64,000 nucleotides of DNA from Candidatus Saccharibacteria bacterium UBA3749 (GTDB lineage: Bacteria > Patescibacteriota > Saccharimonadia > Saccharimonadales > Saccharimonadaceae): positions 4,774-68,773 of the forward strand of contig DFGN01000002.1 of the NCBI GenBank assembly GCA_002371235.1, written 5' to 3'. The stretch's first letter is position 1; the number at the start of each line of letters is the position of its first letter. Below, in pieces: positions 16,559-29,008 of the stretch. The translations under genes and the position numbers were made by a program. Below the pieces are notes generated by a model. The model was not told the DNA's origin, did not search any database, and saw only the letters and a list, made by a program, of their open reading frames with translations.

Positions 16559-19500
16559 TTAGAACTCCTCTCCGAGGTCAACTGTACCATCACTTTCATC
16601 GACCTCTTTTATTTCGATACCTTCATCTGCCATCATGGCTTCAGCTTCTGCATCATCAAGATCCAGAATCTGAGGTTCAGTATCTTTCTTATGTTGATCA
16701 TATATAGATTCATCATCTTTAGATTTTTCAATTTCTTTTGAAGTTTTCTCGATTACGTCACCAGCATCGGAAGCCTCACCATGGTCTAGTAGGTCAACCT
16801 TTAAGCCAAGACCTTGTAGCTCTTTTACAAGAACGTTAAAGCCTTCAGGTAACTTCGGTCCTTCGATTGGTTCATGTTTGATAATCGCTTCATAGGCCTT
16901 CGCGCGACCATAAACGTCATCAGACTTAATTGTTAGCATCTCCTGTAAAGTTGTAGCTGCGCCATAAGCCTCAAGCGCCCAAACCTCCATTTCCCCGAAG
17001 CGCTGACCACCATTTTGTGCCTTACCACCAAGTGGCTGTTGTGTCACCATTGTGTAAGGACCAGTCGAACGAGCATGGATTTTATCTTCTACCATGTGAT
17101 GAAGCTTCAACATATGCATCACGCCGACCGAAGTACGTTCATTAAATGGTTCACCAGTAAGACCATCATAAAGCTGCACTCTACCATCACGGGCAAAACC
17201 AGCCTTTTCAAGTTCATCCGATATTATTTCGTCTGGTACCCCATTAAAGGAAGGGGTAGCAACCTTATAGCCAAGCGCTCGCGCTGCCATACCCAGATGC
17301 GTTTCAAATAATTGTCCAAGGTTCATACGTGAAGGCACGCCCATTGGAGACAAAATGACATCAATCGGTGTGCCGTCAGCCATGAATGGCATGTCTTCAA
17401 CCGGAAGTACTCGCGACACCACACCTTTGTTGCCGTGACGTCCTGCAAGCTTATCACCTACACCAATTTTTCGCATTTCAGCTACGAAGATTTTAATCTG
17501 CATAATCACACCAGCTTTGAGATCGTGGCCTTGTTCCCTGGTATAAACACGGACATCGACTACTTTACCAGTAGATGAACCATTCATCCTGACTGATGTA
17601 TCGCGTACGTCTTTAGCCTTCTCACCGAAGATAGCACGGAGCAATCGTTCTTCTGAGCTAAGCTCTTGTTCGCCCTTCGGAGTAATCTTACCAACTAGGA
17701 TATCACCATTCTTTACCTCGGAACCAATCGTTACAATACCATCTTCACCTAAGTGTCTCAATGAGTGTTCAGAAACATTTGGAATATCACGCGTCACCTG
17801 CTCTGGACCAAGCTTGGTTTCACGCACCTCGACATCGAAATCCTTAATATTAATTGAAGTCAAAGTATCATCCTCTACTAGACGATTCGAGATTACAATC
17901 GCATCATCCATGTTATAACCACGCCATGGCATAAATGCTACTAATAAGTCTCGTCCTAGAGCTAGCTCACCATCATTAATAGAAGCACCCTCAATTAGAG
18001 AGTCATCTTTCTTTACTTTCTGTCCACGAGCCACTACGCAACGTTGATTGTAACAGCGGTCATCATTAGTTTTCTCAAAATGTTGTAACTTATATTCAAC
18101 ATCACCACCCTTGTCATAAGTCACAATCACGCTCTCACTGTCCGCTTTCTTTACTACACCATTACCGGTCGCCATGATTAGCTGTGAAGTATTTTTAGCG
18201 ACTTCACGTTCAATACCAGTACCCACAATTGGATTGTCTTGGCGAAGTAGAGGTACGGCCTGCTTCTGCATTGCGCATGCCATTAACGAGCGGTCAACAC
18301 GGTTCTTCTCAACAAATGGAATCAAACTTGCAGAAGTACCAAGAATCTCCTTGTGCGCTGCATCAATGTGAGTTACTCTCTTCGCCTCAACCTGGGCCGG
18401 AGTACCATGCACTCTCGCTGACACCCAATCCTCAACAAATCTTCCATCTTTGTCCAACTTAACCGAAGCATCCGCAATAATCTTATCATTCTCAGTATCA
18501 GCATCCATGTAAACAATTTCGTCAGTCGCTTTTCCATCTTTCACCACACGATACGGTGCCTCGATAAAACCGTATTTGTTTATTCTGGCATAAGTTGCAA
18601 AGTTAAGTACAAGACCCACGTTGCCACCTTCTGGGGTTTCTACCGTACAAATGCGTCCGTAATGAGTCGGATGCGCATCGCGCACGTCAAATCCGGCACG
18701 CTCCCTCGTAAGACCACCAGGACCCATCGAGCTTAAACGGCGCTTGTGTGCAAGCTCTGAAAATGGGTTTACTTCATCCATTAACTGTGACAACTGTGAA
18801 GTCGCAAAGAATTCCTTTACCGCCGCCACCACAGGTCTCGAATTGAGCAACTGTGACGGAGTTACATCATCAGGATTAGCCATGGACATGCGGTCAAAAA
18901 TATTACGCTGCAAACGAAGCATGCCTAACCTAAATTGCCTCTGCACCAGTTCTCCCACCAACTTAACGCGACGATTCGATAGCGAGTCGATATCATCAGG
19001 TGCTTCCTGGGTGTTATTCAGACGAATAATCTCGGCAATAATTGCCTTAACATCATTCATTTGTAGTGTCCTGAATTCTGGCTCGTCTGGTGTATCAAAA
19101 TGCAATCTTCGATTAATTTTAAATCTACCAACGCTCGAATAATCATAGCGTTTCCTATCAAAGAAAGTCCTCTCAATCATCGATCTTGCATTCTCTACCG
19201 TGGCGAGATCGCCAGGACGCAACTTACGATAGACCTCAAGCAAAGCCTCTCCTTGATTCGAAGTCGTATCCTTCTCAAATGTCGCTTCAATATACTTAAC
19301 TTCGCCATTATCGATATCCTTAAAAGTATCAATAATTTGCGACTTCGTCATACCAAGCGCTCTTAAGAAAGTTGTCACAGGAATTTTACGACGACGGTCG
19401 ATTTTAACAAAAATCGCACCATTTACCGCAGTCTCAAACTCCAGCCACGCACCACGACCAGGTATCACCTTAGCGCCATAATAACGCTTTAAACCAACAG

Positions 19501-19939
19501 TTTCAGCATTAAAGAAAACACCAGCTGAACGAATTAGTTGAGAAACAATTACACGTTCAGTTCCGTTGATAATAAATGTAGCCCTATCAGTCATCCAAGG
19601 GTAATCACCAAAATAAATATCCTGTTCCTTCTTTTGTCCAGTAATCTTGTTCTCAAGCTCAACTAAGACATGAAGCGGCGCTTCATAAGTAGCGAGATTA
19701 TATTTTGCCTCTCGTTCAGATTCCTTCGGATCTTTAAAATAATAATCTTTAAAACGGAGTGATAGCTTTTGCCCGGTATAATCATCTATTGGATTTAACT
19801 CCTCAAAGACTTCCCTAAGTCCGTTCTTGACAAAGTCTGCCCACGATTCCTTTTGGTGTGCAGTCAAATCTGGGATTGGCAACGCCTGATCCCCGCCAGT
19901 GAAGAATACTCTCTCACCTGACTTTGGTTTTTTCGCCAT
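16559..19939 (-). CDS. rpoB: RNA polymerase beta subunit
   Basis: HKRRLSSMGPGGL, GDKLAGRHGNKGVV, GGQRFGEMEVWAL. Confidence 0.99.
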   Translation of the reverse strand: MAKKPKSGERVFFTGGDQALPIPDLTAHQKESWADFVKNGLREVFEELNPIDDYTGQKLSLRFKDYYFKDPKESEREAKYNLATYEAPLHVLVELENKITGQKKEQDIYFGDYPWMTDRATFIINGTERVIVSQLIRSAGVFFNAETVGLKRYYGAKVIPGRGAWLEFETAVNGAIFVKIDRRRKIPVTTFLRALGMTKSQIIDTFKDIDNGEVKYIEATFEKDTTSNQGEALLEVYRKLRPGDLATVENARSMIERTFFDRKRYDYSSVGRFKINRRLHFDTPDEPEFRTLQMNDVKAIIAEIIRLNNTQEAPDDIDSLSNRRVKLVGELVQRQFRLGMLRLQRNIFDRMSMANPDDVTPSQLLNSRPVVAAVKEFFATSQLSQLMDEVNPFSELAHKRRLSSMGPGGLTRERAGFDVRDAHPTHYGRICTVETPEGGNVGLVLNFATYARINKYGFIEAPYRVVKDGKATDEIVYMDADTENDKIIADASVKLDKDGRFVEDWVSARVHGTPAQVEAKRVTHIDAAHKEILGTSASLIPFVEKNRVDRSLMACAMQKQAVPLLRQDNPIVGTGIEREVAKNTSQLIMATGNGVVKKADSESVIVTYDKGGDVEYKLQHFEKTNDDRCYNQRCVVARGQKVKKDDSLIEGASINDGELALGRDLLVAFMPWRGYNMDDAIVISNRLVEDDTLTSINIKDFDVEVRETKLGPEQVTRDIPNVSEHSLRHLGEDGIVTIGSEVKNGDILVGKITPKGEQELSSEERLLRAIFGEKAKDVRDTSVRMNGSSTGKVVDVRVYTREQGHDLKAGVIMQIKIFVAEMRKIGVGDKLAGRHGNKGVVSRVLPVEDMPFMADGTPIDVILSPMGVPSRMNLGQLFETHLGMAARALGYKVATPSFNGVPDEIISDELEKAGFARDGRVQLYDGLTGEPFNERTSVGVMHMLKLHHMVEDKIHARSTGPYTMVTQQPLGGKAQNGGQRFGEMEVWALEAYGAATTLQEMLTIKSDDVYGRAKAYEAIIKHEPIEGPKLPEGFNVLVKELQGLGLKVDLLDHGEASDAGDVIEKTSKEIEKSKDDESIYDQHKKDTEPQILDLDDAEAEAMMADEGIEIKEVDESDGTVDLGEEF

Positions 19940-20113
19940 TTTACCTCTTCTATTAGTGTTATTAGTATCTTAAAGACAACAAATCCAACAAAACAAACTC
20001 CCATTTCGTTAGATTCTATTGTCCCAGCGCCGAAGATTACTGTCTTGTTTCCCCCTAAAGAGTCGCTAGCTCCATAAAGTTACAAAAACAAAACACACTA
20101 CTTCTTGAAAAGA

Positions 20114-20142
20114 ATTATATTATATTTTAATTCAAAAATCAA
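20114..20142 (-). promoter_or_regulatory. rpoB promoter TTGATT-17-TATAAT
   Basis: -35 at 20142-20137, -10 at 20119-20114. Confidence 0.7.
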
Positions 20143-20154
20143 GCCAAAAGTCCC

Positions 20155-20182
20155 TTGATTTTTTTATTAACTTGTGTATAAT
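20155..20182 (+). promoter_or_regulatory. divergent promoter TTGATT-16-(TGTG)TATAAT
   Basis: -35 at 20155-20160, -10 at 20177-20182. Confidence 0.65.
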
Positions 20183-20187
20183 TAAAC

Positions 20188-20280
20188 ATAAGCTAACTAA
20201 CTGCGAGTTCGCTTAAAACATAAAGAATCAAGTTGAGAGCTTATCTATGTCAAAAAATCCTCACCGTTGAGGGATTTTTT
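20188..20280 (+). ncRNA. candidate ~90-nt small RNA with its own promoter and terminator
   Basis: no ORF; taagc-t-aact/agtt-c-gctta hairpin; ends in aaaaaatcctca-ccgt-tgagggatttttt terminator. Confidence 0.5.
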
Positions 20281-20348
20281 GTTTTAATCATAATAACGTA
20301 TCTCAGAGCTAAAAAAAATCTAAACATGACATATAACCATGTACAAAC

Positions 20349-20381
20349 AAAAAATCGCGGCAACTAAAGTCGCGATTTTTT
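20349..20381 (-). terminator. terminator after KH-domain gene
   Basis: aaaaaatcgcggc...gtcgcgatttttt. Confidence 0.75.
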
Positions 20382-20395
20382 GAAATAAAGAGCTC

Positions 20396-20863
20396 TTAAA
20401 TATCCAAGTCATCTAAATCGGCAAGCTCAGCACGAGTTTTCTCAGCCAACTCCGACGTCTCTTCCTCATCTTCGGTGTTGTCATCTTCTTCTATGTCGTC
20501 TTCTTCAGAAACCGAACTTTCTTCTATTGCGGCAGAAGACGCATCAGACACGGCTTCAGACTTAGCTTCGTGAGCATATTCATGTTTTTCTTCACCTTCA
20601 TATTCATCAGTATTGACAATCTTCAAGTTATAACGAGCATCCTGCTTTGTACCAAGCGCGCGTAGTAAAACCCTAATTGCCTGGGCTGTTACACCACGCT
20701 TACCAATTACTCTACCCACGTCTGATGGATCAACTGTAAGCGACAGAAGCACACCCTTTTCATCAATTTTGCGCTCTACTGCTACCTTGTCAGGATTGTT
20801 GACTAGTGTTTTTACGATATATTCTACGAATTGTTGGTCGATAGTAGCCATGTTTTTCTCCAT
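20396..20863 (-). CDS. khpA: KH-domain RNA-binding protein (KhpA/YlqC family) with acidic tail
   Basis: DVGRVIGKRG GxxG loop; follows rpsP as in many bacteria. Confidence 0.85.
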   Translation of the reverse strand: MEKNMATIDQQFVEYIVKTLVNNPDKVAVERKIDEKGVLLSLTVDPSDVGRVIGKRGVTAQAIRVLLRALGTKQDARYNLKIVNTDEYEGEEKHEYAHEAKSEAVSDASSAAIEESSVSEEDDIEEDDNTEDEEETSELAEKTRAELADLDDLDI

Positions 20864-27811: not shown

Positions 27812-29008
27812 CTACAACTCCTTAGCTTTTTGTAGTTGCGGATCACGCATTGCATTAATATCTTCGTAAGAACGCTCTACTTCGTAATCAGGCTTTATTC
27901 CCTCAAGGTTGATAGAACGACCATTCGGAGTCAACCATTCTGCAGTCGTGACCTTTACGATCGACCCCTGCGACAAATCAAATAACTGTTGCACAACACC
28001 TTTACCATAAGTCGTTTCGCCTACAATTTTGGCTTTGTCATAATCCTGTAATGCGCCCGCCACAATCTCAGAAGCAGAAGCCGTAGAGCCATTCACAAGC
28101 ACAATTGTTTCCATATCCTTCAAAATCGCCTTTCCATTGCTGGCAAAAGTGTCAGTATCACCAAAATGCTTCGATTTTGTTTGAAGAATAACCTGACCAT
28201 CGAGCCATAAGCTCAATAAATCTTGTGCAGCCGAAACATACCCACCACCATTGCCGCGTAAATCTAAAATAACCTTCTTAATTCCTTTATTGCTAAAATC
28301 TTTCGCAAATTGTTGCACTTTAACACCGGTATCATTATCGAATCGCGTTACCGTTATGATCGCCGTCGACCCATCATAATCAACGTAGGCCGATACATTA
28401 TTAATTGCCTCACGCTTCATAGTAAATGATTTTTCTTGTCCATCACGCACAATGGTTACCGTTACTTCAGTACCAGTTTCACCACGCACACGCTTTGATA
28501 TCTCTTCTGTAGTCATCGCATAAACTTCTTCATCATTCACCTTATATATTATATCTCCCGCCAAAATGCCGGCCGCACGAGCCGGATTATCCGGTAAGGT
28601 TCTAAGCACCCTCACGTACCCATCACGAAGCCCCATCTCAACTCCAATACCACTACCAACCTTGCCATGTAAATCATTATAGAACTCTTCCGCATCATCT
28701 GCTCCCATGTACACAGTGTATTTATCTCCAACTGCGTCAACGAGGCCTTTTTTTGCTCCTTCAATCAATTCATCCTTTTTTATCTCGCCATTGTAGGAAT
28801 CAGTTAGTTTATAATATACTTCATCAAGCGCCGACCAATTCATATCAGAATTGTTTTGCTTCGAAAAACCTAAATACGGTGCAAACCCGCCGAATAAGCT
28901 ATCCCAATTCATTCCTATAACTAGACCAACAACCAGCATTATTGCCGACAGGACAATCGCACTACCTAGGTTAGTTTTCTTCTCGTTCCACATAACTTTT
29001 TCACTCAT
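27812..29008 (-). CDS. ctpA: S41 C-terminal processing peptidase with PDZ domain
   Basis: GIGVEM PDZ, LDLRGNGGG, TASASEIVAGALQD, TYGKGVVQ. Confidence 0.9.
   Translation of the reverse strand: MSEKVMWNEKKTNLGSAIVLSAIMLVVGLVIGMNWDSLFGGFAPYLGFSKQNNSDMNWSALDEVYYKLTDSYNGEIKKDELIEGAKKGLVDAVGDKYTVYMGADDAEEFYNDLHGKVGSGIGVEMGLRDGYVRVLRTLPDNPARAAGILAGDIIYKVNDEEVYAMTTEEISKRVRGETGTEVTVTIVRDGQEKSFTMKREAINNVSAYVDYDGSTAIITVTRFDNDTGVKVQQFAKDFSNKGIKKVILDLRGNGGGYVSAAQDLLSLWLDGQVILQTKSKHFGDTDTFASNGKAILKDMETIVLVNGSTASASEIVAGALQDYDKAKIVGETTYGKGVVQQLFDLSQGSIVKVTTAEWLTPNGRSINLEGIKPDYEVERSYEDINAMRDPQLQKAKEL

Follow-up and report, generated by a model that had tools for sequence, protein, structure and literature searches.

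In this 719-kb Saccharibacteria genome (97% complete), khpA and rpoB are separated by 456 bp, which raises the question of whether this gap harbors a stand-alone small RNA gene and, if so, whether its product has anything to do with RNA polymerase. A first-pass annotation of the window, i.e. the whole 64,000-nt stretch of DNA that was analysed, had proposed a small RNA transcribed back-to-back with rpoB and had likened it to a miniature 6S RNA. Saccharibacteria are ultra-small epibionts with genomes of ∼0.7–1 Mb and, to our knowledge, their RNA biology is scarcely known.

The minus strand carries rpoB (16559–19939) and rpoC and, upstream of rpoB, also rnc, rpsP, and the KhpA-type KH-domain gene khpA (20396–20863). 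Going from khpA to rpoB, the gap contains a hairpin terminator for khpA (∼20353–20382), the small RNA gene, the promoter of rpoB, and the 168-nt leader of rpoB. In the small RNA gene (20155–20285, plus strand), a promoter and an intrinsic terminator flank a body of ∼65 nt that is free of ORFs. Its promoter, with 10/12 matches, comprises a −35 box TTGATT (20155–20160) and, after a 16-nt spacer, a −10 box TATAAT (20177–20182). The predicted transcript (20188–20285) is ∼94–98 nt long (about 97 nt), its start being deduced from the −10 box and its end from the T-run. The terminator (20252–20285) is composed of an A-tract, a strong stem (20258–20273), and the T-run, in a region where terminator-like sites are more frequent than expected (5 versus 0.7). 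As originally described, this promoter mirrors that of rpoB (TTGATT-17-TATAAT, 20142–20114, minus strand), with −35 boxes 12 bp apart, the body has no credible ORF, and no plus-strand gene follows. An ATG at 20247 opens only seven codons in a frame that is not conserved, and the next gene, khpA, is convergent and 110 nt off. The two −35 boxes are within a perfect 10-nt inverted repeat, AAAAATCAAG / CTTGATTTTT (20134–20163), which may be an inversion by-product or a shared protein-binding site. The small RNA terminator also scores as a terminator on the minus strand. There are hence two hairpin/T-run terminators in tandem 3′ of khpA (20353–20382 and 20253–20286, minus strand), the second being that of the small RNA read on the opposite strand, and together they would insulate rpoB from khpA read-through.

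Comparison with relatives shows that the gene is conserved. When the gap was compared with 40 relatives by BLASTN, two blocks stood out as conserved: the small RNA (20155–20288) and, in the rpoB leader, the initial 90 nt. With a covariance model of the RNA (R1), 139 of the 151 genomes in the genus (named Ca. Nanosyncoccus in related records) have exactly one strong match each, as do 99 of the 102 high-quality ones. The copy in the window scores 95.5 bits with R1 (E = 3.6e-19) and 61 bits with R3, a second covariance model built from more distant members. R3 has a single match in 101/151 Saccharimonadales genomes, representing 82/120 genera, with some whole families lacking a match, and finds nothing in ∼143 genomes of the remaining Patescibacteria. 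(This order-wide tally and those for khpA and SRP54 below each include one unpublished genome, G183, as one unit; no other result depends on it.) In genomes without the RNA, trmD begins 10–13 nt past khpA, and because khpA directly abuts trmD there, these absences are real. A pattern scan of named genomes matched almost exclusively Candidatus Saccharibacteria metagenome-assembled genomes, mostly from ruminant or human gut, several of them labelled Ca. Nanosyncoccus. In the source genome the core pattern of the RNA is unique, and a reading of the core motif as an operator repeated in mRNAs was rejected, no extra copies being present. The promoter is conserved as well, with a cTTGac-type −35 box kept among relatives at a variable spacing; TATAAT is intact in 12 of 16 aligned genus sequences, the other four having TAAAAT/TATACT-type boxes, and at least 9 of 12 promoter positions match in 40 of 75 family members. 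One strong model match per genome across hundreds of genomes is more than chance would produce. As judged from this comparative evidence, 20155–20285 is a real, self-contained non-coding RNA gene, whose family is restricted to the order Saccharimonadales.

This family is absent from the Rfam catalogue. The search of Rfam that the first-pass annotation had put forward returned no match for the region at E ≤ 10, and when Rfam 15 was searched at permissive thresholds with the region, the whole window, and five related loci, no family reached its gathering threshold. The best sub-threshold match was to rteR, at one locus (39.5 bits versus a threshold of 72), and was missing from the other four loci searched. 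A tRNA/tmRNA scan returned one unrelated tRNA-Ala. Signal recognition particle (SRP) RNA was considered and rejected, there being no match to the RF00169 model in 21 genomes and no Ffh or FtsY in the source genome, in which the SRP M domain was not found either. In the source genome (G000) and in 30 other genomes of Saccharimonadales, the search for SRP54-type GTPases (Ffh/FtsY, PF00448) gave no single match above the cut-off; the matches were at P-loop level only, one of them reaching 22.7 bits when summed with neighbouring matches. The SRP pathway seems, from these searches, to be missing from the whole order.

The aligned sequences define an order-wide consensus, which reads 5′ AAGCUC, A(U)UGCGAG, a variable hairpin (P2), GAGCUU, UAUGUGA, and an A-tract hairpin followed by a U-run; the sixth position of the first element is C or A, and GAGCUU pairs back with this element as helix P1. 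In the source genome, the 5′ strand of P1 is AUAAGCU (20188–20194, consensus AAGCUC), which pairs with 20238–20244. It is followed by a one-sided internal loop, AACUAACUGCGAG (20195–20207), whose 3′ part is UGCGAG, and by P2 (20208–20236), a hairpin formed by UUCGCUU and AAGUUGA around an A-rich loop, which is weak in this copy owing to one C/U mismatch. A second UGNGAG motif (UGAGAG) arises where the 3′ strand of P1, (G)AGCUUAU (20237–20244), joins the end of P2. This strand is followed by a conserved single-stranded tail, CUAUGUC (20245–20251, consensus UAUGUGA), that leads into the terminator.

Helix P2 and the terminator are those for which covariation was seen. The terminator, which already shows compensatory substitutions in the stem within the genus, has both-side changes in 11/11 pairs, and 95% of alignment cells are paired. 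P2 closes exactly against both conserved flanks, with end pairing visible sequence by sequence, and all five of its basal pairs covary, the first being C-G in 30 sequences and U-A in 24. These counts are from an alignment fitted to the model (A5), with which a MAFFT alignment (A4) agrees. All five whole-structure measures were above every one of 500 shuffles and above all slid controls. P1, on the other hand, is paired in 86% of cases over 71 distinct sequences but is nearly invariant and shows little covariation; it is therefore proposed on compatibility only. Within the genus, AACUGCGA and GUUGAGAG..UUA..UG are invariant. The UGCGAG columns are invariant in alignments A1 and A4 and nearly so in 124 distinct RNAs, and GAGCUU is nearly invariant across the family. 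Two UGNGAG copies, one unpaired in the loop and one across the P2/P1 junction, are present in 109/124 of the distinct RNAs, and three in 9/124, versus 0.04 expected. The structural model is thus one in which P1 would stack on the variable hairpin P2, leaving a one-sided loop that ends with UGCGAG. A K-turn at the junction, checked by hand, was discarded, as it needs a one-nucleotide shift of P2 that contradicts the covarying first pair. Folding energy of the body is no better than that of shuffles (z = −0.27), and the value for the whole unit (z = −2.1) is due to the terminator. Two mutually exclusive folds had been noted at the outset, and both pairings do exist in the sequence. The long-range AUAAGCU/AGCUUAU stem is P1; the local hairpin, in which AAGC (20190–20193) pairs with GCUU (20211–20214), i.e. 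the 5′ strands of P1 and P2, is an alternative fold that corresponds to GCUC-AUUGC-GAGC in other families.

The proximity to rpoB proved to be a local feature. Among 80 Saccharibacteria loci, the gene order most commonly seen is rnc, rpsP, khpA, and the RNA, all co-oriented, with rpoB in many cases coming next. In ∼10/80 species, including that of the source genome, the RNA module has been flipped between khpA and rpoB; in ∼5/80 it lies between rnc and rpsP, and in many loci rpoB is >2 kb from the RNA or absent. The link with rpoB is limited to the genus; RNA and rpoB are co-oriented in most of its species and back-to-back in a minority. Elsewhere in the order, other families have the RNA between khpA and trmD (TrmD being confirmed by Pfam), which is the ancestral site. 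The conservation that had been predicted upstream of rpoB in close relatives therefore holds for the RNA, which is kept in 139/151 genus genomes, and not for its adjacency to rpoB, and the proposed tie between the two genes does not survive. Being back-to-back with rpoB is a secondary local inversion with no functional link. Conservation of the RNA is independent of the orientation and identity of the flanking genes, as seen in these inversions and relocations, which bears out the original view of a stand-alone gene with its own promoter and terminator.

In many of the other families, the RNA promoter is embedded within the last khpA codons (..LDDLDI*), where the −10 box overlaps the stop codon (loci L184, L187, L224, L226, and others), and the RNA carries an extra 5′ hairpin and an A-rich linker, for a length of ∼130–150 nt. 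Directly past its terminator, trmD has a TGnTATAAT promoter of its own 6–8 nt before the ATG, and because its start is so close to the −10 box, trmD looks like a leaderless mRNA in these families. In the source genome, trmD is on another contig, between obg and recG. The CATAAT that is present right after the small RNA terminator (20289–20294, plus strand), at the site of the trmD promoter in other families, is probably a relic that was co-inverted with the RNA gene. Type I 3′-UTR small RNAs that have an internal promoter, such as DapZ and MicL of enterobacteria, are similar to the arrangement seen in most families, where the promoter is inside the end of khpA and the RNA stops at a terminator after it. 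Unlike these, the copy in the source genome has an intergenic promoter and is inverted with respect to khpA, which makes it fully autonomous.

Three further elements were noticed during this analysis. The rpoB leader (19940–20107, minus strand, ∼168 nt) is 74–85% identical within the genus over its first ∼85 nt (AAGAAGUAGUGUG ... CAGUAAUCUUCGGCGCUG) and contains a long hairpin in which six pairs are preserved through both-side changes. It has no Rfam match and is a candidate cis-regulatory element of rpoBC. A second ORF-free promoter-to-terminator unit of ∼150 nt is found outside the window (L205:1925–2077, plus strand, corresponding to 28424–28576 of G000 contig C8), immediately upstream of the TGTTATAAT promoter of trmD. 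Its fold is better than that of shuffles (z = −4.8) and it is 83–90% identical in 10/12 genus genomes; it was not found in eight other families and has no Rfam match. It shares a starting AACAUAAGCU with the khpA-side RNA, only the flanks being alike (alignment z ∼2.9), and may have originated as a duplicate that diverged and was carried along with trmD. Finally, in the rRNA operon leaders of two genus genomes (L207:1281–1360 and L208:1375–1450), the first 16S-leader hairpin has a loop, AAAGCUGCGAGUAG, that resembles the AAGCU..CUGCGAGU of the small RNA and is followed by a boxA-like UUUUAACAAU. A general link to rRNA operon leaders was dismissed, as AAAGCUGCGAGUAG-type motifs are missing from the leaders of five other families.

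What, then, might this RNA do? That it does nothing, the promoter having arisen by chance in an AT-rich spacer and the bidirectional terminator serving to insulate rpoB from khpA read-through, would fit with a hairpin that scores on both strands and a body that folds at chance level. We consider this very improbable, because the sequence, promoter boxes, and P2 are conserved across >80 genera at a single copy per genome, and because invariant 6–8-mers and compensatory changes are not expected of a spacer. It is hardly credible that the transcript is an mRNA for a tiny protein starting from the AUG at 20247. Although 116 of the 124 distinct RNAs have an AUG, preceded by a purine-rich stretch, eight have none, with CUG instead in several species, and in 32/124 it is followed at once by a stop (AUG-UGA). 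In addition, reading frames from this codon range from 6 to >22 codons in relatives, encode unrelated peptides, and cross a terminator stem that shows compensatory substitutions. These alignments indicate that the RNA is not coding. The same AUG can be read differently, as part of a cis-acting leader or attenuator in which a ribosome bound at a Shine-Dalgarno (SD)-like GGGAG/GAGAG in P1 and at the AUG would block the terminator, allowing read-through into trmD (in other families) or rpoB (in most of the genus). Indeed, the SD-like element and then the AUG are 8–10 nt ahead of the terminator, GGAG is found in 29/124 RNAs alongside the AUG and AUG-UGA counts above, the GCUC-AUUGC-GAGC pairing could release the 3′ strand of P1, and the co-oriented gene that comes next is in most cases trmD or rpoB. 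Cis-regulatory leaders are also known near the same genes, namely the Rfam families Lacto-rpoB and L19_leader, which like this RNA are conserved and structured and near rpoB or trmD-rplS genes; they differ in that there is no Rfam match here and that orientation and downstream gene vary. Such attenuation is nevertheless improbable. The module is inverted here and in the other species noted above, and elsewhere stands apart from any same-strand gene; rpoB is served by a promoter of its own and has a conserved leader; within the genus the SD is degenerate, and the AUG has become CUG in several species. As for trmD, attenuation was rejected on account of the promoter it has past the terminator and of the many species in which the module is inverted or relocated. 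A cis leader is ruled out in the source genome by the fact that trmD has moved, with a promoter of its own, and the module has been inverted to face rpoB. Ribosome-sensing attenuation is thus coherent for some families, but does not hold for this genus or for any locus with an inverted module.

For an RNA acting elsewhere than on its neighbours, the polymerase-related reading of the first-pass annotation appealed to the closing stem around unpaired bases, to the rpoB gene next door, and, in addition, the genome has no detected 6S RNA: a genome-wide search with the RF00013 model (E ≤ 1) gave no match. Like 6S RNA, this RNA would be a stand-alone, abundant-type transcript. However, 6S RNAs are ∼160–200 nt long (typically ∼180 nt), twice the length found here, and have a long interrupted helix with a large two-sided central bubble, instead of a one-sided loop of 8–13 nt. 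Since, moreover, the rpoB neighbourhood is derived and the neighbours outside the genus are khpA and trmD, a miniature 6S-like RNA that binds RNA polymerase is very unlikely, and we have abandoned this reading. A base-pairing RNA that uses the loop (A/C)UUGCGAG and/or the tail UAUGUGA as seeds for mRNAs is a more serious possibility, if still an unlikely one. The layout is typical of such small RNAs, in that the 5′ part is structured, conserved segments are left unpaired, and the terminator ends in a U-tail; the short invariant single-stranded stretches, too, resemble seeds. Against this, a crude duplex scan of 797 predicted start regions in one genome gave results no better than shuffled segments, exact complements of the loop occur at chance frequency (6 matches versus ∼5.5 expected), the seed would not be complementary to an SD sequence, and base-pairing leaves the invariance of the paired P1 unexplained. 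Visual inspection showed that the RNA can be matched over 8 bp to the leader of rpoB in the source genome, but this match is not kept in two relatives.

The reading that we favour, with a little more confidence than an even chance, is that of an autonomous small RNA gene whose product probably binds protein, with the KH-domain pair KhpA/KhpB as the leading candidate partner. The RNA probably acts in trans. Three features favour protein binding: both strands of P1 have a fixed sequence, where a plain helix would be free to covary; UGNGAG is duplicated at a helix junction; and the target scan found no complementarity above background. The RNA would present two (in some lineages three) UGNGAG copies to a protein at the P1/P2 junction. 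KhpA/KhpB come to the fore because khpA is a near-constant neighbour and because neither Hfq nor CsrA was found in the source genome, which encodes both KhpA and an R3H-domain (KhpB-type) protein. This link is drawn solely from gene neighbourhood and from the lack of other chaperones; since all 151 genomes of the order have khpA, with or without the RNA, its distribution gives no co-occurrence signal. KhpA/KhpB are reported to bind small RNAs in bacteria without Hfq/ProQ (PMC11039985 and PMC10117727). The KhpA/KhpB-bound small RNAs of Fusobacterium nucleatum (PMC11039985), Clostridioides difficile (PMC10117727), and Deinococcus radiodurans (bioRxiv 10.1101/2025.09.18.676964) compare with ours in ending with a terminator and in having a host with KhpA and an R3H protein but no Hfq/CsrA, to which the position beside khpA can be added here; they are, however, functionally defined sets with no sequence family, whereas this family is known from genes alone. 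Repetition of a short purine-rich motif is also reminiscent of the titrating RNAs CsrB/RsmZ, although here there are only two or three copies, one of them base-paired, the motif is different (UGNGAG versus A(N)GGA), and the CsrA gene was not found. More tentatively, and with a distinctly lower probability than protein binding as such, the RNA could be a dedicated KhpA/KhpB sponge or scaffold, whose paired UGNGAG motifs would set the activity of the only remaining global RNA chaperone.

Taken together, these findings replace the misleading view of a 6S-like RNA with a tie to rpoB by a model with P1, loop, and P2 supported by pair counts, a restriction to one order, a promoter at the khpA stop codon, a separate trmD promoter, and an inversion in the source genome. 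With a defined structure, a covariance model, and boundaries, the RNA is directly testable in the few cultivable Saccharibacteria, and it may offer a first handle on the role of KhpA/KhpB in this lineage. An RNA that is kept at a single copy, with invariant motifs, in >80 genera with reduced genomes is probably important to the cell. If the sponge or scaffold reading is true, it would be a lineage-specific housekeeping ribonucleoprotein, not an ordinary regulatory small RNA, in epibiont genomes of 0.7 Mb.
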